Source of the DNA: an uncultured Gammaproteobacteria bacterium
GTDB lineage: Bacteria; Patescibacteriota; Patescibacteriia; Magasanikbacterales; UBA922
Assembly (NCBI GenBank): GCA_964522435.1
Contig: CAZFUL010000003.1
Coordinates: 57,542-121,541 of the forward strand
Length of the DNA stretch: 64,000 nucleotides
Direction: 5' to 3'
The notes beneath the pieces are model-generated. The model searched no databases. It saw only the letters and a list, made by a program, of their open reading frames with translations, and had not been told where the DNA came from. Position 1 is the stretch's first letter. Each line of letters starts with the position of its first letter. Positions 1,517 through 61,960 of this stretch are shown piece after piece. The position numbers and the translations under genes are program-made.

Positions 1517-1522
1517 TAAAAA

Positions 1523-1546
1523 AACCCCGATTCAATCGGGGTTTTT
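1523..1546 (-). terminator. Rho-independent terminator (recurrent CCCCGATTGAATCGGGG hairpin) after rpsR; bidirectional
   Basis: aaCCCCGATTCAATCGGGGttttt; perfect 6-bp GC-rich stem, A-run upstream and T-run downstream. Confidence 0.8.
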
Positions 1547-4883: not shown

Positions 4884-7442
4884 ATGACTATTCGGAATCA
4901 ACTTGTATTTCTTTATGGCTGCATGACGGCCTGCTTTTTTTTGAGTAGTATTTTATGGTGGGTGAGTGTTGTTCGAGCACAAGATATTACGATAGATGTA
5001 ACGGTTCCCGCCATTTGTGGTAATGGCGTTCAAGAAGGAGCAGAAGAGTGTGATGAGGCTGATTTAAATGATCAAACTTGTGCTAATGAGGGATTCGCTG
5101 GTGGTGGCAATTTAGCCTGTCAGGTAGATTGTACCTTTGACACCAATGATTGTCGTGTTGGTGGTGGGGGTGGGGGCGGCGGAGGTGGTCCACAACTACC
5201 AGATCCTGAGCCGCAACCAGAACCCGAACCTCCGGTCCTACCTAATCCTGTATGTGGAGATGGTATAAAAGAAGGGGCAGAAGGTTGTGATGACGGAAAT
5301 CTTTTAGATACAGATTTTTGTAATTCCCAGTGCCAACCACGAGTCATTGTTTGTGGAAATGCATTAGTAGAAGTAGATGAACAATGTGACGATGGAAATG
5401 TGCAAAATGCAGATGGCTGTAGTAATCAATGTCGTGTTGAAGCACCGCTTGCTATTTGTGGTAATGGACAAATAGAGGCCGCAGAACAATGTGATGATGG
5501 GAATCTGCAAAATGCGGATGGCTGTAGTAATCAATGTACCATCGAGCTCCCGGCACCGATCTGTGGTAATCGTCAGATAGAACAAGGAGAACAATGTGAT
5601 GATGGAAATGCGCAAAACGCGGATGGGTGTAGTGATCAATGCCGGGTTGAAATTCCTGTTATTCCTCCTCAGGTGATTCCTCCTATCATTAACCCCCCAG
5701 TTGATCCTATTGCTGGTGGAGAAAATGGAGATGGCGGCGGGGGAGCGGATAGAGAACGAATAACTCTGGGACAAGTAGTATTTTGGATCGCAAATGGAGC
5801 TTTTGTGGTAACGCCCGATGAGCAACAACAGTTGCGAACAGTACAGGGGGATGCTCTTATTATTGGAATCCATGAGCATAATATTCCTCAAGCCGATGTT
5901 GCGCAAATTATCATTCGTGTGGGAGAAAAACAATTCGCGTTTACCTATTCTGCAACCGATGGTAGGTATTATGTCACTGTTCCTGTATCATCCGGTGTTG
6001 CCAATGCTACCGTAAGCATTACGTACAAAGAAGGAATGGAAGATCGTATCTCGTTTCGTATTCTTGGGGTACCGCTTGGCCGCATAATAGATGAAGAAAA
6101 AAATCCACTCTCTCAAGTGCGGGTTTCTCTTATCAATAATGAAACGCAACAGCTAGTAAATGTTGCCGTGGTTGGAGGGACAAATCCCTCTGTAACCGTT
6201 GCAGATGGGCAATATTATTTTCTTGTGCCTAATGGTCGCTATAGCTTGCGCATAGAAAAAGAAGGATTTCATATACGCAATACCCTCGCTTTTGTTGTGA
6301 ATGATCACATCATTAATCAAGAATATGTGTTAATAAAAAAACAGGAAACGATTTTAGAGGCTTTGGCAGGACTTGATGAGAATGCCCCTATTACTGAACG
6401 AGCAACCGTATTATCGCAAGCAATCGTAAATAATGTTCAAGAACAAAGCGCGTTAATTACTCAACAAATAACAGAACGTCTTGCCCTTGTTAATGACGTT
6501 GCGGATGATCCGCAAGTAGAAGAAACAGTAGAAATATTTGTAGCCCCGAGTGTTGTTGGGGTATCTGCGGCGATTATTGTTCCTTCCCTATGGTCGAGTA
6601 TTTTTCCCTTGTTGCGCTATATATTTTTACAACCACTTTTGTTATTGGGAAAACGTACCCGTCGAGAATGGGGTATTGTATACAACAGTTTAACAAAACT
6701 TCCTTTGGATTTGGCGGTTGTTCGTCTTATTGATGCCGCCACAGGTAAAGTAAAACAATCTCGCGTAACAGACACGCATGGACGATATTTATTTATTACT
6801 GAACCGGGGGAATATACGGTTGAAGTAGCAAAAGCAGGATTTACCTTTCCTTCTCAAATTATTCGTCATGTGCGCAATGATGGAAAATTTGTAGACGTAT
6901 ATCATGGAGAAACAATTCGGGTAGCATCTGATAATGTTACTATTACTCCCAATGTTCCACTTGATCCTGCCGGAGAAGTAAAAACACCCAAGAGAGTTGT
7001 TTGGGAGACACGATTGCGTATCCTGCAACAGACTATCTCGGTTTTTGGTATTCTCTTGGCGCTTATTTCTGTATATATTAGCCCAACGGTCTTTACGATT
7101 GGTTTTTTGATACTCCATATGGCGATGTATATTGGTTTCCGTGCATGGATTCAACCCAAACAGCCCAAAGGCTGGGGTATTGTATATAATGAAATCAATA
7201 AAGAACCAGTTTCTGGTGCGGTGGTACGACTCTTTACAAAAGAATATAATAAATTGGTCGCAACGCAAATAACGGATCGCAAAGGACGCTACGCGTTTTT
7301 AGTTGGTCCAAGTACGTATTATGTCACGTCACAAAAAACTGGATATGACAGAGTACAAACAGGAGAAATTGCTATCGACACCAACGAAGAACAATCGTTT
7401 TTAAAAGAAGATGTTCCTATGTCGCAGCATCCTAAGGAATAA
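4884..7442 (+). CDS. Large membrane/surface protein with five cysteine-rich repeats (CGNGxxExxExCDDGNxxNxDGCSxxC), Gly and Pro-Glu low-complexity linkers, three carboxypeptidase-regulatory-like domains and internal TM helices
   Basis: 852 aa; N-terminal TM; repeats at aa ~45-260 (Myxococcus-type cysteine-rich repeat, by memory); G11 run then PEPQPEPEPP; three GRY(x)F...G(x)Y beta-sandwich motifs each preceded by a hydrophobic helix. Confidence 0.7.
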   Translation: MTIRNQLVFLYGCMTACFFLSSILWWVSVVRAQDITIDVTVPAICGNGVQEGAEECDEADLNDQTCANEGFAGGGNLACQVDCTFDTNDCRVGGGGGGGGGGPQLPDPEPQPEPEPPVLPNPVCGDGIKEGAEGCDDGNLLDTDFCNSQCQPRVIVCGNALVEVDEQCDDGNVQNADGCSNQCRVEAPLAICGNGQIEAAEQCDDGNLQNADGCSNQCTIELPAPICGNRQIEQGEQCDDGNAQNADGCSDQCRVEIPVIPPQVIPPIINPPVDPIAGGENGDGGGGADRERITLGQVVFWIANGAFVVTPDEQQQLRTVQGDALIIGIHEHNIPQADVAQIIIRVGEKQFAFTYSATDGRYYVTVPVSSGVANATVSITYKEGMEDRISFRILGVPLGRIIDEEKNPLSQVRVSLINNETQQLVNVAVVGGTNPSVTVADGQYYFLVPNGRYSLRIEKEGFHIRNTLAFVVNDHIINQEYVLIKKQETILEALAGLDENAPITERATVLSQAIVNNVQEQSALITQQITERLALVNDVADDPQVEETVEIFVAPSVVGVSAAIIVPSLWSSIFPLLRYIFLQPLLLLGKRTRREWGIVYNSLTKLPLDLAVVRLIDAATGKVKQSRVTDTHGRYLFITEPGEYTVEVAKAGFTFPSQIIRHVRNDGKFVDVYHGETIRVASDNVTITPNVPLDPAGEVKTPKRVVWETRLRILQQTISVFGILLALISVYISPTVFTIGFLILHMAMYIGFRAWIQPKQPKGWGIVYNEINKEPVSGAVVRLFTKEYNKLVATQITDRKGRYAFLVGPSTYYVTSQKTGYDRVQTGEIAIDTNEEQSFLKEDVPMSQHPKE
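5352..5666 (+). repeat. Three tandem 105-bp direct repeats (each encoding one Cys-rich module) inside CDS 4884..7442; two degenerate copies upstream (~5010-5100, ~5252-5340)
   Basis: Repeat units start at 5352, 5457, 5562 (tgtggWaat...gatggNtgtagtaatcaatg), about 85-90% identity, in frame. Confidence 0.8.
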
Positions 7443-7567: not shown

Positions 7568-10500
7568 ATGCGTTATCGTATTTTTATTGTGGGTATATTA
7601 GTACTTATTGGCGTGTTAGGCATTTTTTATAATAGTTATACACAAGGTTCTGCAATTATTATTTCCGAAATTGGCGCCAGCGAAGCAAGTGGACTTGAGT
7701 GGATAGAACTCTACAATAGGAGTAATGAGGCAATCGATGTGACTGATTGGATTTTTTTTGAAGCAGAGACAAATCATACCCTAACCCTGGTACAGGGAAC
7801 GAGCACGATTCAGGCGAAAGAATTTTTTGTTGTTGCACAAGATAGCACCCAGTTGCTTGAACGAGATGCATTATCCGGGATTACAGTATTTGATAGTGCC
7901 TGGGGGAGCTTAAACGAAAAAGGAGAATCTCTTGCAATAAAAGATCAAATCGGAAATATTGTTGAGCAATTTGTATATATCGCAAGTAGCAATTTTTCCT
8001 TAGAAAAAATAGATCTTGATGCATTTATCTATTCAGCAGAAAATTGGAAGGAACATCCCACTGGGCATTCTTTAGGAAAAGAAAATTATTGGAGTAGTGT
8101 ACCAACAGAAGATTTGCCGCCTGAAAACGAGGGAGAACCAGATGTTCAAGAACATGGGTTTATCCCTATTGTGATAAACGAAGTGGTATCAGATCCGGAG
8201 AGCGGTGGTGAATGGATAGAGTTACTGTCACTTGCTACGACAAGCGTGCAAGTAGCAAACTGGGAGATCTATGATAGTAGTGGAAAGATAGCTACCGTAT
8301 CAAGCACTCTTGAACCAGGATCTTTTTTTGTGGTGGAGCTTGCACGTTCTGTACTAAATAATACTGGTGACACGGTGATATTGCGGAATCATACTGGCAT
8401 AGAGGTGGAGCGTATCGTCTATGGGGTTGCGGATGGTGCCGTTGTTTCTGCGCCCCAAAAAGGCCAAAGTATTGCAAGAACGATGCCGGCTAGTGGCGAG
8501 TTTGTGATCACAACAACTATTACGAAAGGAGAAAAAAATAGTATCGTTTTTCCTGTACCTGAAGAAGGTTCTTCTCCACAAGAACCACCAGCTTCCCCGA
8601 GTAGCACACCAACCCCCACGGGTGTTATTGGTGATATTGTTATTAATGAATTGGTCTCTGATCCTGCTGATGACTCCGAAGAATTTATTGAATTATATAA
8701 TAGTACTCAGGCCACCGTGAGTATTGATGGCTGGTATATAGAAGATGGAAGTGAAGGTAAAACAGTATTGCAGGGGAATATTCCTGGGCAAGGATTTTTT
8801 GTCGTAGAAAAACCAAAAGGAAGTTTAAATAATGCCGGAGATTTAGTGCTGTTGTTTGATGCGTATCGAGATCAAATGGATAGTGTGGCGTATGGGAGTT
8901 GGGACGATGGAAATAAAGCAGATAATGCTCCGGTGGCAAAAGATCCACAATCCTTGTCGCGCAAATCCGATGGCAGTGACACGGATTATGACTATCATGA
9001 TTTTGTCATAACTGATGTGGTAACACCAGGAGAATCAAATCGTATTCATGAGAGCGGTATGCTTGGGCAAGGAATATATACAAAAGATCTTCGTATTTCA
9101 GAACTCTTTCCCAATCCCAAAGGAAGTGATACGGAACAGGAATTTATTGAACTGTTTAATTACGGAGAGATTCCTATTGCCTTACAAGGCTGGCAGATGG
9201 GGGATAACTCTAAAAAAATTTTTCGTTTTACAGACAACCACGAAATTCATCCCTTTTCATATCTCCTGTTGTATCGTTCTGAAACAGGCATTTCTTTGAA
9301 CAATTCTGGTACAGAAGAAGTACATGTATTTGCACCCAATGGAGAAATAATAGATTCGTTGCAATATAGCGGATCAGTAAAAGAGGAGAGTAGCTTTGCT
9401 CGATTTGGGGATACGAGAACTGACTGGACGACTCTTGCGACGCCAGGAAAAGAAAATGTGTTACAAGGACAAGCCGCGGCACCACAGATTGTTTTTCAAT
9501 CAATACCAGATGCCTTTGTCAATGAACCGATTTCTTTTGATGCGTCAGATACTATTGATGAGGATAGTGATAGCTTGTCTTTTTTTTGGGATCTGGGAGA
9601 CACGACAACCAGTAGTAACGAATCATTTATCCACCGCTATACCCAACCCGGAATATATACGATTCAATTAACGGTTCAAGACAGTGAAGCAAATAGTTCA
9701 ACGATGCAACGCATGATACGTATCAGTGATGTTATTGGGGCGACCGAACAGTTTGCTACGTCGTCGTATCATGCCCTGCGGATTACTGAGTTAGTCCCTA
9801 ATCCAGAAGGGACAGACGATACAGAGTTTATTGAATTATTTAATGCAGGATTTGTGGATATAGATATTTCAGATTTGTTTCTTGATGATGAAGATGGTGG
9901 TTCGAAGCCCTATCGCTTTCCTTCTGGTACGAGTATTGCGGCTCAATCATATCGGGTGTTTTCTCGTACTGAGACAAAATTAGCATTAAATAATACCGCA
10001 GACCATGTGCGTTTGTTGAGTAAAGAAAAAGATATATTATTAGATGTGGCATATGATGGAAGTGTGGAAGGGGCTGCATATGTCCTAGATGATGTCGGAA
10101 ATTGGGTATGGTCACAGCGTATTACTCCAGGAGAAATATCGTATGTTGAGGAATTGGATATCATATTATCTTCTACGAAAAAAAATAATAAAGAAAAAAT
10201 AGTTCTGTCCACCACGATTGCGGGGGCAAAACAACAAGATGTTGGAGATATGGTAGATGTGTATGGCGTTGTTGCCGTTGAACCAGGTGTCTTTGGGACG
10301 CAATATTTTTATATGGTTGATGAAGAACAACAAGCCATACAGGTGTATATGTATAAAAAAGATTTTCCCTCACTTTCTATTGGAGATGGCATGTATGTGC
10401 GAGGTGAATTGGCAATGACAAAAGGAGAGTGGAGAATAAAAACAAGTGACAAAGAAGATATTCGTGCACATGATCACCCGAATCTTGAGGATATTATGAC

Positions 10501-10948
10501 AGAAGACATTGCGCATATTAAAGAGGCGCAGATACAATTTGTTCGTATTGCTGGAGAGGTTACAGAAGCAAAGTCTTCGTATTTGTATGTGGATGATGGG
10601 ACGGATGAAATAAAAATATATCTAAAAAAAGGAGCAAACGTTCCTAAAAAGTTTGTCTCTGTGGGAGACCTTGTTGACGTTACGGGTATATTGATTACGA
10701 GTGGAGAAGAATTACAACTCTTACCCAGATCGTCAAAAGATATAATAAAAACCGGCGTTGTAGAAGAATCAATTATTGATAAAGGAATAGGAGATTCAGT
10801 GAACGAGGGAAGTGTTGCACAAACATATTTAACAGCAACTGCTGGAGGTATTAGTTCATTGCTACTCGGCATGTTAGCTAAAGTGCACGGCGCTACTATT
10901 TGGAGGAGAACAACGTACGTGCTAGAAAAAATTATTCGGCGTGCATAA
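7568..10948 (+). CDS. Giant membrane-anchored surface protein: N-terminal TM, five lamin-tail domains (LTD), one PKD domain, two C-terminal OB-fold-like domains, C-terminal hydrophobic segment
   Basis: 1126 aa; strong SD (aggagg) 8 nt upstream; LTD signatures IIISEIGASE...EWIELYN, IVINEVVSDPESGGEWIEL, IVINELVSDPADDSEEFIELYN, LRISELFPNPKGSDTEQEFIELFN, LRITELVPNPEGTDDTEFIELFN; PKD-like FFWDLGDTTTS...YTQPGIYTIQLTVQD; OB-like VDVYGVVAVEPG...QYFYMVDE and IAGEVTEAK...LYVDDGTDEIKIY; no nuclease catalytic motifs recognized. Confidence 0.75.
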   Translation: MRYRIFIVGILVLIGVLGIFYNSYTQGSAIIISEIGASEASGLEWIELYNRSNEAIDVTDWIFFEAETNHTLTLVQGTSTIQAKEFFVVAQDSTQLLERDALSGITVFDSAWGSLNEKGESLAIKDQIGNIVEQFVYIASSNFSLEKIDLDAFIYSAENWKEHPTGHSLGKENYWSSVPTEDLPPENEGEPDVQEHGFIPIVINEVVSDPESGGEWIELLSLATTSVQVANWEIYDSSGKIATVSSTLEPGSFFVVELARSVLNNTGDTVILRNHTGIEVERIVYGVADGAVVSAPQKGQSIARTMPASGEFVITTTITKGEKNSIVFPVPEEGSSPQEPPASPSSTPTPTGVIGDIVINELVSDPADDSEEFIELYNSTQATVSIDGWYIEDGSEGKTVLQGNIPGQGFFVVEKPKGSLNNAGDLVLLFDAYRDQMDSVAYGSWDDGNKADNAPVAKDPQSLSRKSDGSDTDYDYHDFVITDVVTPGESNRIHESGMLGQGIYTKDLRISELFPNPKGSDTEQEFIELFNYGEIPIALQGWQMGDNSKKIFRFTDNHEIHPFSYLLLYRSETGISLNNSGTEEVHVFAPNGEIIDSLQYSGSVKEESSFARFGDTRTDWTTLATPGKENVLQGQAAAPQIVFQSIPDAFVNEPISFDASDTIDEDSDSLSFFWDLGDTTTSSNESFIHRYTQPGIYTIQLTVQDSEANSSTMQRMIRISDVIGATEQFATSSYHALRITELVPNPEGTDDTEFIELFNAGFVDIDISDLFLDDEDGGSKPYRFPSGTSIAAQSYRVFSRTETKLALNNTADHVRLLSKEKDILLDVAYDGSVEGAAYVLDDVGNWVWSQRITPGEISYVEELDIILSSTKKNNKEKIVLSTTIAGAKQQDVGDMVDVYGVVAVEPGVFGTQYFYMVDEEQQAIQVYMYKKDFPSLSIGDGMYVRGELAMTKGEWRIKTSDKEDIRAHDHPNLEDIMTEDIAHIKEAQIQFVRIAGEVTEAKSSYLYVDDGTDEIKIYLKKGANVPKKFVSVGDLVDVTGILITSGEELQLLPRSSKDIIKTGVVEESIIDKGIGDSVNEGSVAQTYLTATAGGISSLLLGMLAKVHGATIWRRTTYVLEKIIRRA

Positions 10949-12707: not shown

Positions 12708-12722
12708 AAAATAGATAATAAA

Positions 12723-12748
12723 AAGCCCCGATTATATCGGGGCTTTTT
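12723..12748. terminator. Bidirectional rho-independent terminator (variant of the recurrent GC hairpin) between the antiporter gene and the tRNA-Pro end of the minus-strand tRNA operon
   Basis: aaaGCCCCGATtatATCGGGGCttttt, A-run and T-run on either side. Confidence 0.75.
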
Positions 12749-14926: not shown

Positions 14927-16290
14927 CCACAGAACAAATAAATCCTGCGACAGGAGAAGCTATCGATAGTTATTCATATATGGATTTTTCTGTTGTTGAA
15001 ACTATGTTGCACAACATGCAAGTAGCCCAACATGTTTGGAAAGAACAATCCTTTCAATACAAAGCAGTCTGCTTTCGGTCACTTGCAACATTGTTACGAG
15101 CAGAAAAAGAATCTTGTGCCCGCATGATTACTCGCGAGATGGGAAAAGCAATAACAGAATCTTTTGCCGAAGTGGAAAAGTGTGCAACGTTGGCTGAGTA
15201 TCTTGCAGAACATGCGGAATCTTGGTTAAAACCGAGAACATTGCATGCTGATGGAAAAAAACATGAGTTGCACTTTGACCCCTTGGGGATCATTTGTTTA
15301 GTGATGCCATGGAACTTTCCATTTTGGCAGCCCCTAAAGGTTGGTTTACCGCCACTTTTAGCAGGGAATGCCATCGTGTTAAAACACGCAAAAAATGTTA
15401 GTGGCAGTAGTCTCTTATTAGAGAGGCTTATGGTACAGGCCGGATTTCCTAAAGATATATTTCGTAGTATTATTGTTGATCATTCTGTGTTAGCGCAAGT
15501 AATAGCACACCCAGCGATTGCGGCGGGTTCATTAACAGGAAGTGAAAAAGCTGGTTCTATCTTTGCGGCTCAAGCTGGAAAACAGCTCAAAAAAGTCGTA
15601 ATGGAATTGGGTGGCTCTGATGTGGCGATTGTTTGTAAGGATGCGGACATTCCTTTAGCTGCAAAAGGAATAGCAAAAGGGAGAATGATGAATGCTGGAC
15701 AGGTCTGTATTGCAACAAAACGTATTCTTGTTCATCAATCAATTGAAGTTCAATTTCTACAAGCGCTTGTGCAAGAAGTACGTGCACTGCGCGTAGGTGA
15801 TCCAGAACAAGATGCTATTGATATGGGGCCATTGGTGAATGAACAAGCGGTTAAGGATATGGAATCATTTGTAGAAGACGCATTAAATCAAGGAGCGCAT
15901 TGTGTGTTAGGCGGAAAGCGAATTAACCAATCCGGAGCATATTTTGAACCAACAATTCTTACAAACGTAACACCAAACATGCGAGTGATGCGTGAAGAAG
16001 TATTTGGACCAATTGCTCCTGTCATGGCTTTTACAAATGAGGAAGAAGCAATCACTGTTGCCAATAACAGTACCTATGGATTATCTGCAACTGTGTGGAC
16101 TCGGGATATGCAACAAGGAGAACGGATAGCAAAAGCACTTCAAACAGGATCTGTATTTATTAACTCCTTATCAAAAACTGACCCACGACTTCCTGTGGGT
16201 GGCATAAAGAATAGCGGTTTTGGTCGCGAGTTATCCGAATATGGTATTCGAGAGTTTGTGAACATAAAAACAATAAATGTTTACTCATAG
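14923..16290 (+). CDS. NAD(P)-dependent succinate-semialdehyde dehydrogenase-like aldehyde dehydrogenase (Sad/YneI-type short ALDH)
   Basis: 455 aa; INPATGE...MITREMGKAITESFAEVEKCA...EHAESWLKP closely parallels the E. coli Sad/YneI N-terminus (from memory); catalytic ELGG and GQVCIA Cys motifs; start overlaps upstream stop (ATGA). Confidence 0.75.
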   Translation: MTTEQINPATGEAIDSYSYMDFSVVETMLHNMQVAQHVWKEQSFQYKAVCFRSLATLLRAEKESCARMITREMGKAITESFAEVEKCATLAEYLAEHAESWLKPRTLHADGKKHELHFDPLGIICLVMPWNFPFWQPLKVGLPPLLAGNAIVLKHAKNVSGSSLLLERLMVQAGFPKDIFRSIIVDHSVLAQVIAHPAIAAGSLTGSEKAGSIFAAQAGKQLKKVVMELGGSDVAIVCKDADIPLAAKGIAKGRMMNAGQVCIATKRILVHQSIEVQFLQALVQEVRALRVGDPEQDAIDMGPLVNEQAVKDMESFVEDALNQGAHCVLGGKRINQSGAYFEPTILTNVTPNMRVMREEVFGPIAPVMAFTNEEEAITVANNSTYGLSATVWTRDMQQGERIAKALQTGSVFINSLSKTDPRLPVGGIKNSGFGRELSEYGIREFVNIKTINVYS

Positions 16291-16302
16291 TGGTATAATA
16301 AA

Positions 16303-16334
16303 AAACCAGCGTAACGTCCACGCTGGTTTTTTAT
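16303..16334. terminator. Bidirectional rho-independent terminator between aldehyde dehydrogenase gene (+) and small membrane protein gene (-)
   Basis: aaaaaACCAGCGTaacgtccACGCTGGTtttttatt. Confidence 0.75.
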
Positions 16335-16546
16335 TATACGAGTCGATCAATCGTATAATGGGTAATGGTAATAATGGCAATTCCTAGTAGGAGTGAAAAA
16401 AGATAACTCATGGGAAGATTCCCTGGAAGCAGATACATATCTAAAAATCCCCAAATACCCCGCCATAAACCAATTAAACCAGAAAGAATAATTAAGTTAA
16501 AAACTAATTGATGATGTTTTTTAAGTTTAAATAATTTTTTTAGCAT
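16334..16546 (-). CDS. Small hypothetical membrane protein (two predicted TM helices)
   Basis: 70 aa; LVFNLIILSGLIGLWRGIWGF and YLFSLLLGIAIITITHY hydrophobic segments; terminator immediately downstream. Confidence 0.4.
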   Translation of the reverse strand: MLKKLFKLKKHHQLVFNLIILSGLIGLWRGIWGFLDMYLLPGNLPMSYLFSLLLGIAIITITHYTIDRLV

Positions 16547-16636
16547 AGAAAAATGAACATATCTCGGTAACGTACATAGTATAGCACAGTGTTAAAAAAA
16601 ACGCCTTGGTGGTATTCTATCTAAAATAGATGTTAT

Positions 16637-16891
16637 ATGTTTTATCATCCTATGGAAAATAAAAAAATAATTGTTGGAGGGATATATCAGCATTATAAAC
16701 GTCTTTCTTTGTATCAGATTGTCGCTCTTGCATTACATAGTGAAACAAAAGAAGAGATGGTGGTGTATCAATCAATAGATAAGGAAACAGAATATTGGGT
16801 GCGTCCCCTCGCGTTGTTTTGTGAAAATGTTATTGTTGATGGTATTTCACAACCACGCTTTCGCTATATAAAAATGAATATCTCTCTCTAA
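16637..16891 (+). CDS. DUF1653-family small protein
   Basis: 84 aa; GGIYQHYKRLSLYQIVALALHSETKEEMVVYQSIDKETEYWVRPLALFCENV matches the DUF1653 pattern (Y.HYKG..Y.V...A.HSET.E..VVY..L....WVRP...F); hairpin terminator at ~16895-16935. Confidence 0.55.
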   Translation: MFYHPMENKKIIVGGIYQHYKRLSLYQIVALALHSETKEEMVVYQSIDKETEYWVRPLALFCENVIVDGISQPRFRYIKMNISL

Positions 16892-19478: not shown

Positions 19479-19492
19479 TATTAATATAAAAA

Positions 19493-19521
19493 ACACCCCG
19501 ATTGAATCGGGGTGTTTTTTA
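19493..19521. terminator. Bidirectional terminator (recurrent CCCCGATTGAATCGGGG hairpin) between efp (+) and tkt (-)
   Basis: aaaACACCCCGATTGAATCGGGGTGTttttttat. Confidence 0.8.
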
Positions 19522-19543
19522 TATCCTACTACCGTAAAACATA

Positions 19544-27995: not shown

Positions 27996-28120
27996 TAAAA
28001 AAATAACAGGCATCGGACGTCAGACCTGCTTTACTTGGTAAATTGTGTCTGAGGTCTGATGCCTGGCTGCAAAGCAGGTTTCTCGTTCAAGCAGACCCTC
28101 CATGCTTGTCGTGTGGAAGA

Positions 28121-28146
28121 GCCCCGATTGTTTCGGGGTTTTTTTG
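28121..28146 (+). terminator. Rho-independent terminator after nrdB (variant of the recurrent GC hairpin)
   Basis: GCCCCGATTGtttCGGGGttttttt. Confidence 0.7.
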
Positions 28147-28151
28147 TTGTA

Positions 28152-31294: not shown

Positions 31295-33022
31295 ATGGGA
31301 ACAGGATTTAGTTCGATTGAAGACTTACTTGGTGCATCAAAAAAAACAGGGTCATCAGGAAAAGCACCAGCATATGGTAGTCCAGAAGATCTGTTTCACA
31401 AAAAGATGAAGCAAGTCTCTCAAAAAGAAAAAGAAGTTGAGGTGCAACGATCGGCTGCCCTTGTTTCTGTTCCGTATATTTCGTTAGAACATTTTCCGGT
31501 GAGCCATGAAGCCTTGCGTCAAATTCCAGAACAAGAGGCCCGAGACAAACAAGTGGTCTGTTTTTTTGCTACACCAGAAGAGTTTCGTTTAGGAGCCGTA
31601 TCTCCGACAGATGGGCAGGCAGATGAGCTCTTGCATGTTCTTGAAGAAAAAAATAACTCGCACGGAAAAATATATTCTATTTCTGAAGCCAGTTTGCAGC
31701 ATGTGTTGTTGTTATATAAAACGCTTCCTGTGGTACATGCAATTAGTAAAGACGTTTCGATTCAAGCATCCGAATTAGAGCAAGTACAAGCCTCGGTGAA
31801 TGATTTTTTGCAGTTTCAAGAACAATTACGCAAGAGTACGACAACAGATTTGCTCACCTTTATTATGGGGGCTGCGTTAAAGCTAGAAGCCTCTGATGTG
31901 CATATTGAAGCAGAAGAACAGCGGATTGTGTTGCGTTTTCGTATTGATGGTATTTTGCACGATGCGGCAAGTATTACTTCTGAGCAGTATAAAAAACTGG
32001 TTTCTCGGTTAAAATTACTGTCCTCATTAAAAATCAATATCACGGATAAACCGCAAGATGGACGCTTTACCGTAAAAACAAGTACGGGAGATATTGATAT
32101 TCGTGTTTCTCTTATTCCAACTATTTATGGAGAGAGTATTGTTATGCGTTTGTTGGTACAACGCCAAGAAGCCTATTCTTTTGAAGAGTTGGGTTTACGT
32201 GGGCAACAGCTTGACCGGTTAAAACGAGAGATGGATCGTCCCAATGGTATGATTATTACGACTGGGCCAACAGGGTCGGGGAAGACAACAACGTTATATG
32301 CCATGATGCATCAGTTAAATAAACCAGATGTTAAAATTATTACGCTCGAAGATCCAGTAGAATATAAAATGCCGGGCATTAACCAAAGTCAAATTGATAG
32401 GAGCAGTGATTATACATTTGCAAAAGGATTACGTTCATTATTACGCCAAGATCCTGATATTGCCATGGTGGGAGAAATTCGTGACTTAGAAACAGCTGAC
32501 ATTGCCATTCAGGCAGCATTAACAGGTCATTTAATGCTTTCTACGGTGCATACGAATGACGCTTTTGGGGCCATTGCTCGATTTTTATCTATGGGAGTAC
32601 AACCCTTTTTATTAGCCCCTGCATTAAACTGTGTGATTGGACAGCGCTTAGTTCGACGCTTGCGTGATGATTTGAAGCAACCAACGACCTTAACGGCAAG
32701 TCAACAAGAACGAGTGACGGCACTTATTGAAGATCTACCAGAACCTCTCCGTGCGGAAGTAAAAAATAGACCGCAAGTATTTTATTCTGTTCCAGAAGAA
32801 AATCCTCAAGGTGAGTTAGGATACCAAGGACGCTTAGGTATTTATGAGGTGTTTGTGGTTGATGATGACATTGAAGCTGCGATTAGTGCGGGAAACGTTG
32901 GAGAAGTCGATATTCGTCGTCTTGCAAAGAAACAAGGTACCATTACCATGGCGCAAGACGGTATATTAAAAGCGCTTGATGGCCTTACCTCTGTTGAAGA
33001 AGTCTTTCGTGTGATAGAATAG
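31295..33022 (+). CDS. pilB: Type IV pilus assembly / type II secretion ATPase (GspE/PilB family)
   Basis: 575 aa; N-terminal GspE_N-like region, Walker A TGPTGSGKTTT, Asp box LEDPVEY, Walker B/His box MVGEIRD...TGHLMLSTVHTN. Confidence 0.85.
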   Translation: MGTGFSSIEDLLGASKKTGSSGKAPAYGSPEDLFHKKMKQVSQKEKEVEVQRSAALVSVPYISLEHFPVSHEALRQIPEQEARDKQVVCFFATPEEFRLGAVSPTDGQADELLHVLEEKNNSHGKIYSISEASLQHVLLLYKTLPVVHAISKDVSIQASELEQVQASVNDFLQFQEQLRKSTTTDLLTFIMGAALKLEASDVHIEAEEQRIVLRFRIDGILHDAASITSEQYKKLVSRLKLLSSLKINITDKPQDGRFTVKTSTGDIDIRVSLIPTIYGESIVMRLLVQRQEAYSFEELGLRGQQLDRLKREMDRPNGMIITTGPTGSGKTTTLYAMMHQLNKPDVKIITLEDPVEYKMPGINQSQIDRSSDYTFAKGLRSLLRQDPDIAMVGEIRDLETADIAIQAALTGHLMLSTVHTNDAFGAIARFLSMGVQPFLLAPALNCVIGQRLVRRLRDDLKQPTTLTASQQERVTALIEDLPEPLRAEVKNRPQVFYSVPEENPQGELGYQGRLGIYEVFVVDDDIEAAISAGNVGEVDIRRLAKKQGTITMAQDGILKALDGLTSVEEVFRVIE

Positions 33023-34202: not shown

Positions 34203-34480
34203 TTGACAAAAATATATCGCGAGCGTACTATGTAGGTACGCTCTTTTGTTTCGTTTGTATAAGAATCAACCCAGAGTACACCGCTCGTTATAGAGAGGGA
34301 AAAGAGTTGCTGAAACTTTTCCTAACGAGAATTGCTCATGGTACCAGTCTTAAAGAAACCACAATACATAAAAGTAAAATAATTGGGTGGAACCGCCTTT
34401 GTTAACAGTTATTCTCAGGCCCCGATATAGTAGGTAATAAACGTCTTGTTTGTTGCATACTATATCGGGGTTTTTTATAT
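34203..34480 (+). promoter_or_regulatory. T-box riboswitch leader of thrS: promoter TTGACA-N17-TACTAT, Stem I with AGAGA and Thr codons, T-box sequence AAUUGGGUGGAACCGCC, terminator hairpin + U-run
   Basis: Promoter 34203-34231; T-box consensus AATTGGGTGGAACCGCC at 34381-34397; 13-bp terminator stem CCCCGATATAGTA...TACTATATCGGGG (34420-34470) followed by TTTTTT; GAAACU (34312-34317) and AAACC (34356-34360) provide ACU/ACC Thr specifier candidates; 23 nt from U-run to thrS ATG. Confidence 0.7.
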
Positions 34481-36273: not shown

Positions 36274-36305
36274 AAAAAAACCCCGATTGAATCGGGGTTT
36301 TTTAT
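36274..36305. terminator. Bidirectional terminator (recurrent CCCCGATTGAATCGGGG hairpin) between thrS (+) and hypothetical gene (-)
   Basis: aaaaaaaCCCCGATTGAATCGGGGttttttat. Confidence 0.8.
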
Positions 36306-43766: not shown

Positions 43767-44501
43767 TTATGCCTTTGTTTGTTTGAGTTCTTCGTACAAA
43801 ATGGTAATGGCACTCGTAGATAACGGCGTGAGGAGGAGACTGAGCAATGTTGATAGTAATGCGATCATACCAGAGAGGGCTAACGCAATTGTAGGGGTAG
43901 CCGTTTCTGGTAAGACAAATGATAGTATGAGAGAAAGGATGCCATCTGCGATAAGCGCAAAGAGAATAAACACTACGGTGGGTGCTACTAAACGACCAAG
44001 TACAGGGAAGAATCTTCCGGCTACTAACATTTTACTTTCTTTGAGTGCAGCCATTCCTTTTGTTCCATCAATACTTACATGATAAAAGGCAAAAACATAC
44101 CAAATAATAAAGACAATGCCTGGGATAAATAAGAGAAATAGTCCTCCAAGAACAATGAGTCCTGTTAATATGGATACCCAAAGTGTTGGAAGAAAAAGAG
44201 CGCTTGCTTCTTTGAGTGATGCGTTGATAGGGCCAGTGGTTTGCGTGGTGTAGGCTTTTGCCGTAGCGCGGATAAAGGCAATAGAAATCCAGAGGCTACT
44301 ACTATATACAATGACAAACAAGACAATACTCAGAATTCGCGCAGCGAGGCCTTGAAGTTCCGCCATTGCCCCAAGGATGCTGATCATTACTGCTAGGGCT
44401 GTTGGAATAAATAAAAGAAGCATGTAGCGGATAAATACTCTGTAATGGACTTTGTATAAAAAGATGCTACGTTTAATAATATCTGTAGAAGAGAGGAGCA
44501 T
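43767..44501 (-). CDS. Hypothetical polytopic membrane protein
   Basis: 244 aa, 6 hydrophobic helices; no family recognized. Confidence 0.4.
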   Translation of the reverse strand: MLLSSTDIIKRSIFLYKVHYRVFIRYMLLLFIPTALAVMISILGAMAELQGLAARILSIVLFVIVYSSSLWISIAFIRATAKAYTTQTTGPINASLKEASALFLPTLWVSILTGLIVLGGLFLLFIPGIVFIIWYVFAFYHVSIDGTKGMAALKESKMLVAGRFFPVLGRLVAPTVVFILFALIADGILSLILSFVLPETATPTIALALSGMIALLSTLLSLLLTPLSTSAITILYEELKQTKA

Positions 44502-44559
44502 AGAAAAAATCTAAAATCAAAATATATAGATGAAGTATAGCAAAAAGTAAGAAATAAGA

Positions 44560-45141
44560 CTATTGGCGTATCTGTGTGTTGACGATCTGCCACAGGTGTT
44601 CATGAATGCTGTCGATTGATTGATTCGCGTCTATTGGCAGCCAGCCACGTTCTTGCGCCAGTTGTTTATGTGCCTCACGGACGACCGTCATAAGCGCATC
44701 ATTGGTTTCATGTTTATGGCCTTGTTCTGTTGCTTCGGTAAATCGTTCTCCATCAAACAAAAAAGCAAGATCTTCTTGTAATAAGTGCGCATTAATGGTT
44801 TCGAGGTATGGTTTATCAACCCCTGCACCAATTCCCCAGGCAATGCCTGTTCCGGTATAATCTTCTGCAACAATATGTATTCCCTTTGCCAAGAATTGTT
44901 TGAGTGTTTCTTCGTATTGGGTTCTGTTTAACGCGTAAATTGTTTGACCTTCTCTTGCAGAGAGGTTGAAGGGGTTACCTTGTCGTAAATACGCATTGAG
45001 CATTGTGCCAGAGGGATGAATATCATAAATAGGGTATTTAAGATATTGTGCAGGATAGCCTTCTTTATTCAAGCGCTCTACCAATTTTTTTGCTTGAGTG
45101 GATTTTCCCAGGTTGTTGATACCGTAGAGGACAATGAACAT
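44560..45141 (-). CDS. tmk: Thymidylate kinase-like P-loop kinase (last gene of thyA-folA-tmk unit)
   Basis: 193 aa; P-loop IVLYGINNLGKST, EDY...GIAWGIGAG resembles the Tmk DRY/LID region; operon context with thyA and folA. Confidence 0.5.
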   Translation of the reverse strand: MFIVLYGINNLGKSTQAKKLVERLNKEGYPAQYLKYPIYDIHPSGTMLNAYLRQGNPFNLSAREGQTIYALNRTQYEETLKQFLAKGIHIVAEDYTGTGIAWGIGAGVDKPYLETINAHLLQEDLAFLFDGERFTEATEQGHKHETNDALMTVVREAHKQLAQERGWLPIDANQSIDSIHEHLWQIVNTQIRQ

Positions 45142-45149
45142 ACAAAATA

Positions 45150-45620
45150 TTATTTTTTGATATAGGTGACAAAAGAAAATAGGGGATGATCTTCTCGTTC
45201 AATTTCTTTCCATATTGTCGGGTCGATTGCGGGGAAAAAGGCATCACCATCTACTGTTTGATCAACATGCGTGATATATAAGCGATCTGAGAGAGCAATG
45301 GTTTGCGCATAGAGTTCTGCGCCACCAATAATAAAGAGCTGTTCGTTTGCATGGGCATCGAGTGCCGCTTGCGGCGAGCCATAGCGAAGAACCTCTTGGG
45401 GAAGAGGGTATTGTTCTTGTCGAGTAATAACAATATTTTTTCTATTTGGCAGGGGACGAAATTGTTCTGGGAGAGATTCCCATGTTTTTCTTCCCATCAT
45501 AACCGTTGCGTCAGTTGTGAGGCGTTTAAAATGCGCCAAATCTTCTGGAAGATGCCACGGCAGTGTGCCATTGTTTCCAATACAATTATTTTTAGCAATC
45601 GCGGCAATTAATGCAATCAT
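45150..45620 (-). CDS. folA: Dihydrofolate reductase
   Basis: 156 aa; MIALIAAIAKNNCIGNNGTLPWHLPEDLAHFKRLT...VMMGRKTWESL. Confidence 0.9.
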   Translation of the reverse strand: MIALIAAIAKNNCIGNNGTLPWHLPEDLAHFKRLTTDATVMMGRKTWESLPEQFRPLPNRKNIVITRQEQYPLPQEVLRYGSPQAALDAHANEQLFIIGGAELYAQTIALSDRLYITHVDQTVDGDAFFPAIDPTIWKEIEREDHPLFSFVTYIKK

Positions 45621-46495
45621 ACAGCAATAGGAAAAGAAATACGGGGATGACTTTGGTAATTTTTGAGAATGGTATCTGTGTAGGTCCAGTCAAATATACT
45701 TGAGAAGCTGCTTGTTTCAATCTGAGGTAGAGGATAGAGATGGGGATCTCTTTGTAATTGTTCTTTTGCTCCCTCAATATGATTAAGATAAATATGGGTG
45801 TCTGCCAAAAAGCCAACCAATTTTCCTTCTTGTAATCCAGATTCTTTTGCTAAGAGATGTAATAATAAAGCATAACTCGCGATATTAAATGGCAAACCCA
45901 ACATAACATCTACCGATCGTTGGTTCCAGAGTAAATTCAATTTACCGTCAATAACGGTTATTTGAAAATTATAATGACAAGGGGGGAGTGCCATCTGGTT
46001 CATCATGCTTGGGTTCCATGCGCACACTAATAGGCGACGGCTAGACGGATCTTTTTTCAGGGTATCAACTAATTGTTTGAGTTGATCAATCCCTTGTCCA
46101 TCATAATTACTATCCCAATTTTCATAGCGTGCATTATAATGCCGCCATTGAAATCCATACACGGGGCCAAGATCACGCTCTTGTTGCATCCGTTCTTTTG
46201 CGGCTTCATCGTGGCCATAGGCTGCTTTTTGTGGATTTGCCCATTCATCCCAAATATGATTATTTCTGTCTTTGAGCCATTGCTTGTCTGTAATGCCTTT
46301 AATAAAAAATTCTAACTCAGAGGCAATCAGAGAGAAGGGCATTTTTTTTGTGGTTAACAGAGGAAATCCTTGTGCCATGTCGTGTTCAAACATGGTGCCC
46401 GCAATGGCAAGGGTACCGGTACCGGTTCTATCTTCTTTTTTGACGCCGGTAGTGAGTACCTGGCGGACAATATTCAAATATGCATCCATAATCAA
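45617..46495 (-). CDS. thyA: Thymidylate synthase (ThyA, folate-dependent)
   Basis: 292 aa; RTGTGT, ...LPPCHYNFQ active-site Cys region; stop overlaps folA start. Confidence 0.9.
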   Translation of the reverse strand: MIMDAYLNIVRQVLTTGVKKEDRTGTGTLAIAGTMFEHDMAQGFPLLTTKKMPFSLIASELEFFIKGITDKQWLKDRNNHIWDEWANPQKAAYGHDEAAKERMQQERDLGPVYGFQWRHYNARYENWDSNYDGQGIDQLKQLVDTLKKDPSSRRLLVCAWNPSMMNQMALPPCHYNFQITVIDGKLNLLWNQRSVDVMLGLPFNIASYALLLHLLAKESGLQEGKLVGFLADTHIYLNHIEGAKEQLQRDPHLYPLPQIETSSFSSIFDWTYTDTILKNYQSHPRISFPIAV

Positions 46496-46506
46496 ACAAT
46501 TAACGC

Positions 46507-48639
46507 TTATGCTGGTGTTTGGGGTGGTTTTTTCAATAATTTACCTTTGCGAATATCTGGTGGTTTTACTACTGTCGCGGGTGTAGGAGGGGTACTTACT
46601 TTTTGTGATCGAGGTTGTGGGGTACTGATGAAAACATCATCATCCTCCTCTTGTGATGCAGCTTGTACCATGGCCTCTTGTGCGAATGAGGCTTCGACTA
46701 ATTGAGCGATATTTGCTTCAATATCTTGTTTTTGTCTTGCTTCAAATTGTGCGAACTTTTCTTCTTGACTGATCGCGGGTCCTTCTGGGTACGTATCTTT
46801 TTCTTCAGTATTTAAGATACGAATCGGTTCTTCAGGAGAAGGAGTATCTTCTAAAAAGGTAGGAGAAAACGCCTCTTTGTAGCTAGCGCCAAGTGCCTCT
46901 GATTGATCTGTCATGAGTGGCTGTGAAGGATCACCTTTGGCGGTGGTTGTGTCGGCGAGATCTTCTATTGCTTGAGAGATGTCTCCTTTAAAGGAGGATT
47001 GTCTATTTTTTTCTTTTACTGCTGTTGTTATTTTTTCACGAGCTGAGACATGATCTGCGCCTATTTGATCAACAAATGTTTTGAGCGTATCTTTCCAATT
47101 TGGTTCGGTAATGTTAATCACCATTGTATTATCTTCTTTTTCACGTGTAGATTCTTTATCACTAAAATAGACACGGATTGGCTTGTCTTTTGGGATATCT
47201 AAAAGAGGATCCGCCATAAGGATTGTTTCTATATCTTTTCCATGTTCTTCTATAAAATCTTTTGGGATATGTTCTACATCCGCTCTAACGCGCATAATAA
47301 CAGGAACCTCTGGCATACGCTCGCGAAGCTGCGCGGTGAGGGTACGTTCAGTTGCGAAGCGTTTTGCGTTCTTCATGCTGTCAATGGCACGTGTCAATTT
47401 TTCTTGCCAATTAAATTCTTTAAGGTTTACGTTAATAATCGGAGATGCTGGATCCTCGAGTGGATTACCCGTTGGTTCATGAAGACTAAAAAAGAAAAAG
47501 GTTCCTTTCCATACATCATGAGATAATTTTTCTTGTAATATATCAGAAAGATCAGCAAGTGTTGCTTCACTCATCTGTTCATACACCGCGCGATCTTTGG
47601 GGTTTTGCATATCGCGGGTTGCAAAGTCTGCCAAAAATTTTCCTAAGAATGGTCGGAATTTTTCTGTGAGTTGTTGTAGCTGGTCCTCTTTACCTGGATC
47701 ACTATCTATTCGATCCACCATAGCCGTGATTTCTTCATTTGAAACATCGTTAAGTGTTTCTGCTGGAGTTATTTTTTCCATTGACCAAGTTCCATTGTCT
47801 ATATTTTTTTGTAGTTCCTCAAATAAATCCGTGGACCAAGGAAGAAGCTCCCATTCCTGATCACCTGTTGTGATCATTTGTTTTGTCTTTGTATCATAGC
47901 CAACAATAATCATCTCTGTTGTATCACCACTTGCGGGCTCCCTGATGCTATATTTTTCTCCTGGAATAAATTCTTGTCCACCAAAAATAAATGCATTTTT
48001 TGTATCAATATCTTTTTGATATGCTTGGTCAACAATAACAGAAGGTTCTTCTTCATCTGGCGTATTATTTATGGTATCAGCCTCCGCTTGCATTGCTGCT
48101 AAGTCTTCTGGGCTAATGAGTGGTTTATCTTGAACCACCTCAGTATCATCCGCATTTATATCTGCTGCTTCTTTTTCCCATGCTGCTAATTGTGCAGGGT
48201 CAATAAGAGGTTCTTTATCTAATAAAGGTGCCACTGCTGTATCCACCGCTTCTGCTACTGCTTGATCTGCTTGTACTTCTGCTTCTAATGCCGCAATTTC
48301 TTCTGCCGCGTCAGTTTGTCCACTCTCTTGTAATACCTTCTTTTTGGTATCCATGTTTCTGAGGATAGAGAGGGCATTGTCAATTGTTTTTACTTTTTCT
48401 TGAGAAAGTTGTTCTGCCTTTTGTTTCAGTTCTGCTTCTTCTTTGGCGTACTCAGCTTCTGTCATACCCATGAGTTTCATGTATTCTTTTTTCCAACGGT
48501 CTCCTTTTCCAAAACTATCTTTTGCTTTGTCTACAGTACCAACATCAGCCGATTTTTTTTCCAAAACGACAGGAGCTTCTTGTGAGGGGGCTTTTTCTTC
48601 TTCTGCAAGTTGTACATTTTTTTTAAACCAATTTGGCAT
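46507..48639 (-). CDS. Large hypothetical acidic, low-complexity protein encoded immediately upstream of thyA
   Basis: 710 aa; Glu/Asp/Lys-rich with Ala/Glu repeat stretches; no recognized domain; stop 12 nt before thyA start. Confidence 0.45.
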   Translation of the reverse strand: MPNWFKKNVQLAEEEKAPSQEAPVVLEKKSADVGTVDKAKDSFGKGDRWKKEYMKLMGMTEAEYAKEEAELKQKAEQLSQEKVKTIDNALSILRNMDTKKKVLQESGQTDAAEEIAALEAEVQADQAVAEAVDTAVAPLLDKEPLIDPAQLAAWEKEAADINADDTEVVQDKPLISPEDLAAMQAEADTINNTPDEEEPSVIVDQAYQKDIDTKNAFIFGGQEFIPGEKYSIREPASGDTTEMIIVGYDTKTKQMITTGDQEWELLPWSTDLFEELQKNIDNGTWSMEKITPAETLNDVSNEEITAMVDRIDSDPGKEDQLQQLTEKFRPFLGKFLADFATRDMQNPKDRAVYEQMSEATLADLSDILQEKLSHDVWKGTFFFFSLHEPTGNPLEDPASPIINVNLKEFNWQEKLTRAIDSMKNAKRFATERTLTAQLRERMPEVPVIMRVRADVEHIPKDFIEEHGKDIETILMADPLLDIPKDKPIRVYFSDKESTREKEDNTMVINITEPNWKDTLKTFVDQIGADHVSAREKITTAVKEKNRQSSFKGDISQAIEDLADTTTAKGDPSQPLMTDQSEALGASYKEAFSPTFLEDTPSPEEPIRILNTEEKDTYPEGPAISQEEKFAQFEARQKQDIEANIAQLVEASFAQEAMVQAASQEEDDDVFISTPQPRSQKVSTPPTPATVVKPPDIRKGKLLKKPPQTPA

Positions 48640-48857
48640 AGAAAAACATTAAAGGGTATCGATGGTTTTGTGAATGTTGGTTAAATCAGCCTGCTCTTTT
48701 TGCTGTATCGCAGTAGTAAAGATCTGGTTGGCTTTTTGTTGGAGCGCATCATCTTTTTGTTGTATAGCAAACAAACGCTGCAAGAGAGTGTCGAAATGTT
48801 TTTTAATAGAAGGGAAGTTCATATACTTGTTAGTATAGCGAAATTTTTTTATCTTGC

Positions 48858-49295
48858 CTATCCTGTTGTCCCAAATCCACCACGATTTTTTTTATTCATA
48901 CTCTCTACTTCTACCAGTGTTGCTTGATCCGCGCGTACGAGCAGTGCTTGGGCAATACGTTCTCCTTTTTCTATGCGAACCGCTTCATCAGTAAGATTTT
49001 GTACGAGAAGGTAAATCTCGTCAGCATCACCACAATAATCTTGATCAATAACAGCAATGCCATTTCGCATAGACAGACCCTTCTTTTTGGCAGAGCTAGA
49101 GCGGGCTGCAATAATAAGCGCATAGCCCTGTGGTATCTCTACCACAATATTTGCGGGTAATAACAAAAATTCCCGAGGGGGAATGGTGGCTTCAATTCTT
49201 GTGTACAGATCAAATGCCACTGCCCCGGGAGTTTGGTAAGCTGGGAGCGGCAGCGTGGTGTCAATACGTTTAATGCGTAACTCCATAGCGTTCAA
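48858..49295 (-). CDS. dut: dUTP diphosphatase
   Basis: 145 aa; AFDLY, ...IIAARSSSAKKKGL, ...IDQDYCGD..., GERIAQ dUTPase motifs. Confidence 0.85.
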   Translation of the reverse strand: MNAMELRIKRIDTTLPLPAYQTPGAVAFDLYTRIEATIPPREFLLLPANIVVEIPQGYALIIAARSSSAKKKGLSMRNGIAVIDQDYCGDADEIYLLVQNLTDEAVRIEKGERIAQALLVRADQATLVEVESMNKKNRGGFGTTG

Positions 49296-49845: not shown

Positions 49846-50353
49846 ATTGTTCTACCATGTCATCAAAATAATGTAGCGCTATACCCACTTGACGGAACAT
49901 ATCTTCACTTTCTGCTCCGGCATGATATTTCTTTTCGCACACTACCCGCACAATGCCCGCATTAATAATCATTTGGGCACACACGCGGCAGGGGGTCATT
50001 TTGCAATATAATACAGAGCCTTCAATACTGACGCCTAGTTTTGCGGCTTGAACAATAGCATTTTGTTCGGCATGGGTGGTGCGAACACAGTGTTGGGTTT
50101 CGTGACCATCTTGGTGACGAACAATTTTAAATAAATGGCCAAGCTCATCACAATGAGGTAATCCTGCGGGAGCACCAACATAGCCGGTTACGAGAATTTG
50201 TTTGTTTTTTGCAATCACACAGCCAGAACGACCGCGATCACAGGTTGCCCGTTGCGCAACGGCTCTTGCTACCTCCATAAAATACTCATCCCACGAAGGG
50301 CGATAATGTTGTTCTTGGGTCATATAAAAGAGGATAAAAAAGACAGGCAGCAA
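49832..50353 (-). CDS. dCMP deaminase (cytidine/deoxycytidylate deaminase family)
   Basis: 173 aa; zinc motifs HAEQNAI and PCRVCAQ. Confidence 0.8.
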   Translation of the reverse strand: MLPVFFILFYMTQEQHYRPSWDEYFMEVARAVAQRATCDRGRSGCVIAKNKQILVTGYVGAPAGLPHCDELGHLFKIVRHQDGHETQHCVRTTHAEQNAIVQAAKLGVSIEGSVLYCKMTPCRVCAQMIINAGIVRVVCEKKYHAGAESEDMFRQVGIALHYFDDMVEQYAGQ

Positions 50354-61920: not shown

Positions 61921-61932
61921 GTATACAAATAA

Positions 61933-61960
61933 ACACCCCGATTGAATCGGGGTGTTTTGT
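61933..61960 (+). terminator. Rho-independent terminator (recurrent ACACCCCGATTGAATCGGGGTGT hairpin) after rplY
   Basis: aaACACCCCGATTGAATCGGGGTGTtttgtt. Confidence 0.8.

Follow-up and report, generated by a model that had tools for sequence, protein, structure and literature searches.

A G+C-rich 17-nt palindrome, CCCCGATT(G/C)AATCGGGG, recurs at the ends of operons in a 64-kb stretch of DNA (contig CAZFUL010000003.1 of assembly GCA_964522435.1; hereafter the window) from an uncultured bacterium placed by its GTDB lineage in the Magasanikbacterales, within the Patescibacteriota. The copies are probably bidirectional Rho-independent (intrinsic) terminators that form a related family specific to this genome. 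Terminators normally share structure, not sequence, and one core in a quarter to a third of those in the window suggests a mechanism that has yet to be reported for bacteria of the candidate phyla radiation (CPR): terminators may have been copied, a miniature palindrome may have moved, or a reader may recognize the specific sequence. All counts for this genome given below refer to the window.

A search with the pattern CCCCGATTSAATCGGGG returned exactly four exact matches to the 17-mer (Table 1), and not one match was found in 100 dinucleotide-preserving shuffles of the same DNA. A preliminary description of the window had counted these four copies correctly, with two of the starts (19497 and 61937) placed one base too high. 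When up to three mismatches were tolerated, only two more short sites joined the four exact ones, at 12726 (CCCCGATTATATCGGGG) and 28122 (CCCCGATTGTTTCGGGG); written longer, they read GCCCCGATTATATCGGGGC (12725-12743) and GCCCCGATTGTTTCGGGG (from 28121). A search for the arms CCCGA...TCGGG added a single site, a long hairpin at 34420-34470 upstream of thrS. The arms CCCCGA/TCGGGG are common to the two short variants and the thrS leader hairpin, and variants sharing CCCCGAT/ATCGGGG arms near 12725, 28121 and 34420 were indeed present as first described.

The arm words of the family are CCCCGATT and ACCCCGAT. The 7-mer CCCCGAT occurs 14 times on the two strands of the window, against 4.3 expected. 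Under an order-3 Markov model the expectation is 3.0, and CCCCGAT is the most over-represented 7-mer of the window; CCCCGATT, with 11 copies on both strands against 0.8 expected, is the most over-represented 8-mer. Twelve of the 14 CCCCGAT copies form the paired arms of six hairpins, a thirteenth makes up the left arm of the 28122 variant, and 10 of the 11 copies of CCCCGATT sit in six hairpins. The one remaining copy of either word, at 20542, lies within the transketolase gene, outside any hairpin. With no match in the shuffles and with arms that head the lists of 7-mers and 8-mers, the claim that the recurrence is far above chance was upheld. The genome had also been called AT-rich, which is true to a moderate degree only, the window having 40% G+C. 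Sites of the motif occur about once per 9-16 kb. Other over-represented words (CTCAGCTGG, TGAGCCGCA, GCCTTACAA and others) were considered as uptake signals and set aside as noise, being dispersed over coding sequence without a common setting. GANTC, a site that falls within the core, was found 140 times in the window against 170 +/- 14, a mild depletion that is uninformative.

Each copy of the motif consists of an A-run on the 5′ side, a G+C-rich stem-loop and a T-run on the 3′ side. The frame is AAAAA...TTTTT in two of the exact copies and AAACA...TGTTT in the other two. When folded as RNA, the core gives a 7-bp stem with four G-C pairs at its base and a 3-nt loop, and the stem is prolonged by A-U pairs. 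The short sites with their flanks are predicted to fold at -17.1 to -28.7 kcal/mol, with z-scores of -4.2 to -9.2 on either strand. All six short sites have, on one strand or both, GGGG(TG) followed immediately by a tract of at least 4-7 T, and the mirrored A-run found in five of the six would make these hairpins bidirectional; the variant at 12726, in particular, can act in both directions. The cores begin 7-127 nt past the stops of the flanking genes (rpsR, KefC-like/tRNA-Pro, efp/tkt, nrdB/uppS, thrS and rplY), and the hairpins lie mostly between convergent genes and never within a gene. The copies are singletons spaced 9-25 kb apart, flanked by nothing other than A and T runs. A simple terminator scan ranked the hairpins at 1520, 12720, 19483 and 28113 among its strongest matches. 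The proposal that a conserved GC hairpin serves as terminator core is supported by structure, flanks and position, and the A/T-run flanks and the placement between convergent or tandem genes are true of all copies.

A scan of the window for hairpins with a perfect stem of at least 7 bp gave 16 terminator-like hairpins, five of them with a CCCCGAT inner arm and one (47858) falling inside a gene. Together with the 28122 variant and a long-loop terminator at ~42046, the set amounts to ~17 operon-end terminators and one leader attenuator. The exact core is present in 4 of the ~17 (24%) and the arms in 6 (35%), so that about two thirds do without the motif. The remaining terminators are diverse; those at 7466 (CCCCAAATAATTTGGGG) and 56502 (ACACCCCATATTTGGGGTGT) match the family in the C4...G4 frame only, a frame present in eight terminators of the window.

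Table 1. Predicted terminator hairpins carrying the 17-nt core or its arms in the window (coordinates are those of the window; energies in kcal/mol)
Feature	Sequence	Hairpin	Core	Direction	Energy	Context
Exact-core terminator, C form (+ strand)	AAAAACCCCGATTCAATCGGGGTTTTT	1520..1546	1525-1541	-	-24.9 (with flanks)	Core begins 7 nt past stop of rpsR (1548-1766, -), end of rpsF-ssb-rpsR operon; terminated transcript has UUGAA loop
Variant terminator	AAAAAGCCCCGATTATATCGGGGCTTTTT	12720..12748		both	-21.6	Identical 7-bp arms, loop TAT; 19 nt past KefC-like gene (+), 7 nt past 3′ end of tRNA-Pro (-)
Exact-core terminator, G form	ATATAAAAAACACCCCGATTGAATCGGGGTGTTTTTTATAT	19484..19524	19496-19512	both	-25.9 and -28.7 (two strands)	Perfect 41-nt palindrome between convergent efp (stop 19478) and transketolase/tkt (stop 19544)
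Variant terminator	GCCCCGATTGTTTCGGGGTTTTTTT	28113..28147	28122-28138	+	-22.1	6-bp arms CCCCGA/TCGGGG, loop TTGTT; 127 nt past nrdB (+; after nrdAB), 14 nt from facing uppS stop (-); T-run on + strand only
Long-stem hairpin	CCCCGATATAGTA...TACTATATCGGGG, then TTTTTT	34417..34476 (34420-34470)		+	-34.5	27 nt upstream of thrS start; CCCCGAT/ATCGGGG arms around unrelated 37-nt interior
Exact-core terminator, G form	AAAAAACCCCGATTGAATCGGGGTTTTTT	36275..36303	36281-36297	both	-17.1	Between convergent thrS (stop 36260) and 594-aa open reading frame (stop 36314)
Exact-core terminator, G form	AAACACCCCGATTGAATCGGGGTGTTT	61931..61957	61936-61952	+	-19.3	16 nt past rplY/ctc (stop 61920), ahead of next + strand gene (62001)

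Five Magasanikbacteria-like loci (L118, L119, L164, L165 and L166; ~96 kb), with tkt genes 62-66% identical to that of the window, were compared with it, and the neighbourhood in these relatives is partly syntenic. They contain 19 terminator-like hairpins, each with a unique inner arm. The family hairpin is absent from the five loci, CCCCGAT is at background level and the word does not occur in their terminators, a comparison that is a weak test at this evolutionary distance. The efp terminator in L119, AAAACCTCTCTTTTTTAAAGAGAGGTTTT, has the same architecture as its counterpart (a 13-bp stem, a 3-nt loop and A/T runs) and a different sequence, and in L165 no terminator separates efp from tkt, which overlap. 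Because the relatives' terminators have unique arms, the recurrence is, as judged from these sequences, a property of this genome or of close, unsampled kin. A Firmicute origin with a T-box was considered and rejected, since the T-box match upstream of thrS is below threshold and the transketolase homologues point to Magasanikbacteria-like Patescibacteria. Apart from one NCBI protein that is 100% identical, the best homologues of the transketolase, at no more than 67% identity, are named Candidatus Magasanikbacteria or Patescibacteria, and the gene content of the window, with a PilB-type ATPase, large lamin-tail/PKD/OB-fold surface proteins and a nucleotide-salvage cluster, fits a CPR bacterium. 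One of the relatives, L118 (GCA_041294365.1), carries an IS200-type Y1 transposase gene (PF01797) at 16274-16717, within a pentose-phosphate gene cluster.

The idea that the 17-mer is a universally preferred hairpin was ruled out by three results. When all Joint Genome Institute (JGI) metagenome contigs were scanned completely for the flanked pattern AMACCCCGATTSAATCGGGGTKT, it turned up in only 15 stretches, 14 of which have a single exact copy, while the remaining one (L130) has two copies with identical flanks. These contigs range from 30% to 61% G+C and the motif lies 5-92 nt past the end of an open reading frame (ORF); the copies look like sporadic, independent terminators of unrelated organisms, and the window alone holds four. 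In viral contigs, 8 stretches contain the bare 17-mer; three shuffled-stem controls of equal shape and composition were found in 15, 4 and 1 stretches. Finally, when hairpins of the form C4-N3-loop3-N3′-G4 were ranked by energy, 3003 of the 4096 were predicted to be more stable than the 17-mer.

In other bacterial genome contigs, the 17-mer occurs in at least 117 stretches from many phyla. Among the matches listed, ~15 of 125 genome-contig copies have terminator-like flanks, many of these in Bacteroidota, and CPR loci make up about a quarter. The listed matches in metagenome-assembled genomes (MAGs) of Patescibacteria, mostly of the Microgenomates type (L005, L025, L028, L035, L049, L058, L061, L068, L093, L098, L116 and others), place the 17-mer mostly within long ORFs, where it encodes P-D-S-I-G or P-I-Q-S-G. 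In the Prolixibacteraceae MAG CAYMXK01, the 17-mer is part of a 40-nt tandem repeat, GTCTCCGGTCTCCCCCCGATTCAATCGGGGCCGGTCTCCG, present in 3.3 copies at positions 302-434 of L064; the 17-mer recurs on at least six contigs of this MAG (L064 and also L031, L070, L079, L099 and L107), in what is a different, unrelated repeat family. A further metagenome contig, L126, has near-identical palindromes at 1410-1426 and 10186-10202, within 9 kb of each other. The first is a terminator 5 nt past a ComFC-like gene and the second, with a central T, is inside an ORF with a LytR_C domain. L126 was considered as a relative of the source organism and rejected, as it is Levybacteria-like and its second palindrome is coding.

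If the copies are intrinsic terminators, RNA polymerase arriving on either strand would transcribe the G+C-rich hairpin followed by a U-tract and release the transcript. The 7-bp stem CCCCGAU/AUCGGGG with its 3-nt loop would be lengthened by pairing of the 5′ A-run with the 3′ U-run, and the hairpin, sitting directly after the last gene of an operon, probably also protects the 3′ end of the mRNA. The family may have originated by short-patch copying, or by descent from one successful hairpin, within the lineage; variation would then be confined to the loop and to compensated changes in the stem. As an explanation for the identical sequences, copying or common descent is weakly favored over selection for a specific sequence, because the identity extends over 27-28 nt in two subtypes and because the long perfect palindromes have an appearance that suggests a young age. 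A signal recognized in double-stranded DNA on uptake is not taken to be the source of the identity.

Several observations weigh against this account of the family. Termination at these sites is deduced from sequence alone, and the family has been traced over 64 kb. The copies share nothing past the A/T runs and have no target-site duplications, and 17-28 bp is short for homologous exchange. The thrS leader hairpin, which keeps the arms around an unrelated interior of 37 nt, suits selection on the arms better, and the ACA/TGT frame, also present in terminators outside the family (17426 and 56502), suits selection in place. Nor is the pattern of repetition ordinary: among 30 genomes, a repeated terminator sequence was found only in two Pasteurellaceae, Haemophilus influenzae, with its known uptake signal sequence (USS), and Actinobacillus pleuropneumoniae, with a USS-like motif (PMC5217627). 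A sequence-specific reader, either a protein or the uptake machinery, is therefore possible. That leaves two broad kinds of cause: copying from terminator to terminator, by a dedicated enzyme or without one, and selection by a reader of the sequence.

A dedicated enzyme is at the center of one alternative, in which the motif is a miniature mobile palindrome resembling the repetitive extragenic palindromic (REP) sequences of E. coli. A REP-associated tyrosine transposase (RAYT), an IS200/IS605-type Y1 transposase or a similar enzyme, encoded in another part of the genome and acting in trans, would have dispersed it into 3′ untranslated regions (UTRs), where it would serve as terminator and stabilizer. 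Identical units of 27-28 nt are indeed found at loci that are otherwise unrelated, always outside genes and either at gene 3′ ends or between convergent genes; the family is specific to this genome and not found in the relatives; the perfect palindromes of up to 41 nt suggest young copies; and a Y1 transposase gene is present in one relative (L118, above). REPs are likewise reported to serve as terminators and mRNA stabilizers and to lie between convergent genes (bioRxiv 10.64898/2026.03.23.713779). However, Pfam or NCBIfam scans of ~60 ORFs in the window revealed no transposase or RAYT, and the copies show neither a conserved flanking tetranucleotide, nor a target-site duplication, nor the clustered or doublet arrangement of bacterial interspersed mosaic elements (BIMEs) and of REP doublets that form hairpins (REPINs). 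The core is only 17 nt long, what lies beyond it is the A/T runs that any terminator needs, and the variants differ in the loop, not through random decay. The features of a miniature inverted-repeat transposable element are likewise missing from the unit, a simple palindrome of 17-41 nt with no conserved internal or flanking sequence. On balance a mobile origin is considered unlikely. Unlikely, too, is that a lineage-specific protein reads the RNA hairpin or the DNA palindrome, be it a factor that binds or processes 3′ ends, a termination factor or a dimeric DNA binder, and that selection has fixed the sequence for this purpose. The identity of the four copies includes the loop, there is neither a thermodynamic reason nor a general preference for this particular 17-mer, and the arms are retained even in the unrelated thrS leader hairpin. 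Moreover, CCCCGAUUG is the reading of the terminated transcript at the one-sided sites (rpsR and rplY), and it falls to the translation-related gene in the convergent pairs (efp/tkt and thrS/594-aa ORF). Yet the orientation pattern is drawn from only four sites, no such preference is seen among copies of the hairpin in other organisms, and some two thirds of the window's terminators manage without the motif.

The preliminary description had put forward three explanations, an uptake signal, a REP-like element and a preferred terminator; the first fails in the window, and the other two were retained. An uptake signal of the USS or DNA uptake sequence (DUS) type would require a competence machinery that prefers DNA with AAAA(C)CCCCGATT or with the whole palindrome, so that uptake bias and recombination spread the word and inverted pairs were co-opted as terminators. 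The USS are words of 9-11 nt present in 1000 or more copies per genome, and they are found in 17%-29% of terminators in Pasteurellaceae and ~55% in Neisseria, in a +/- configuration with the A-run outside the stem (Kingsford et al., 2007; PMC1852404). In H. influenzae, where an intergenic region bears a terminator, only 34% of its USS copies are inside the terminator (PMC1852404). The motif in the window, at ~24%-35% of terminators and with its A-run facing outward in the +/- configuration, is within the range of 17%-55% for genomes with USS, and the extended A-run logic of USS pairs applies to it equally. In the survey of 30 genomes, repeated terminator sequences were confined to the two Pasteurellaceae with USS or USS-like motifs (PMC5217627), and the motif is rare in other organisms, as expected of a self-tag. 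The earlier claim that the genome encodes pilus and DNA-binding surface proteins stands to this extent: the window encodes a pilus ATPase of the PilB type, and one of its surface proteins combines five lamin-tail domains with a PKD domain and an OB-fold. Saccharibacteria are reported to be naturally competent in a paper on the genetic manipulation of CPR bacteria (PMC10187176). Against all this, the arm word is not over-represented outside hairpins, where a single CCCCGATT (the coding copy in tkt) compares with 0.8 expected, and the density over the 64 kb covered is far below that of USS, at about one per kb. Conservation takes in the loop as well as the arms, which makes the hairpin the unit and not the word; the word is not common to the five relatives, distant as these are; and genes for ComEC and ComEA were not found in the window. 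An uptake signal is accordingly regarded as very improbable, its share of terminators being the one USS-like trait, and there is scarcely more to be said for the version in which the whole 17-bp palindrome is a DUS-like self-tag for uptake or recombination, tolerated almost only in the terminators of a naturally competent CPR bacterium. If true, it would be the first such sequence known outside Proteobacteria, carried by an organism presumed to scavenge the DNA it lives on, and would bear on how ultrasmall symbionts handle foreign DNA; the evidence is against it. Chance, finally, would produce look-alike terminators independently from a common frame of A-run, CCCC...GGGG and T-run. The C4...G4 frame is common enough in the window, and terminators with the identical 17-mer exist in unrelated organisms, apparently by independent origin. 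Six positions in the frame are free, however (4096 combinations), so that four identical cores among ~17 terminators have by our calculation a probability of ~1e-7; with no match in the 100 shuffles and no recurrence at all in the relatives, a compositional artefact has a negligible probability and is effectively refuted.

The hairpin at 34420 is a probable leader attenuator of thrS and is a loose relative of the terminator family, not a copy. It had been described as a T-box terminator. The thrS leader (34265-34476) does have a T-box-like GGGTGGAACCGCC box at ~34386, ahead of the strong attenuator hairpin, and the shared arms are as stated. The Rfam T-box model RF00230, on the other hand, scored only 17.1 bits (E = 0.097) against a gathering score of 93, and no match was obtained at the gathering threshold. 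The leader may be a divergent CPR T-box.

Other genes of the window were noted in passing. The genes rplK (54494-54919, - strand) and rplA (50457-51260, - strand), normally adjacent, are parted by three non-ribosomal genes, for a 2-hydroxyacid dehydrogenase, a Kazal-domain protein and a PGA_cap protein, and a terminator at 54334-54357 lies right after rplK. The protein of 1126 aa encoded at 7568-10948 contains the five lamin-tail domains, the PKD domain and the OB-fold nucleic-acid-binding domain, and the adjoining 852-aa protein (4884-7442) contains CarboxypepD_reg repeats; both are candidate surface proteins, possibly DNA-binding. The PilB-type T2SSE ATPase (31295-33022) is encoded in the segment 30311-34193 between two ORFs of 326 and 380 aa without a Pfam match. 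A cluster for deoxynucleoside triphosphate metabolism on the - strand (43767-50353) comprises tmk, folA, thyA, a gene for a 710-aa protein without a Pfam match, dut and genes for a kinase-like AAA protein and dCMP deaminase. In the segment 17848-19478, efp is immediately preceded by a truncated class II tRNA-synthetase-like gene (343 aa, tRNA-synt_2), and this pairing is kept in the relatives L119, L165 and L166. The gene may encode an EF-P modifying enzyme of the EpmA/PoxA type, with which the pairing is consistent.

A literature search found no paper on CPR terminators. If the copies are terminators as proposed, their function is ordinary gene punctuation, and their recognition mainly aids annotation by marking operon ends in a poorly understood CPR genome. 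Catalogues of bacterial genomes reportedly describe genome-specific families of repeated stem-loop sequences, and the family in the window is likewise genome-specific, short and intergenic, as those often are, the likeness being one of description. With the USS/DUS terminators of Pasteurellaceae and Neisseriaceae it shares an A-run-preceded word, arranged as a +/- inverted pair, that supplies the stem in a substantial share of terminators; it differs in having no single-word excess, a far sparser distribution, a conserved loop and a word that is absent from relatives. Like the REPs and BIMEs of Enterobacteria and Pseudomonas, it is a short repeated extragenic palindrome found in 3′ UTRs and between convergent genes, with roles as terminator and stabilizer; in contrast to them, it is much shorter, a perfect palindrome with a U-tract, and has no GTAG-type flank, clusters or RAYT in the window. 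It is closest in build to ordinary bidirectional terminators, with a GC stem-loop, a 3′ U-tract and a mirrored A-tract located at most tens of nucleotides from the stops. Such terminators are defined by their structure (PMC5217627), whereas the window reuses one 17-nt core at 4 of its ~17 terminators and the arms of that core at two or three sites more.

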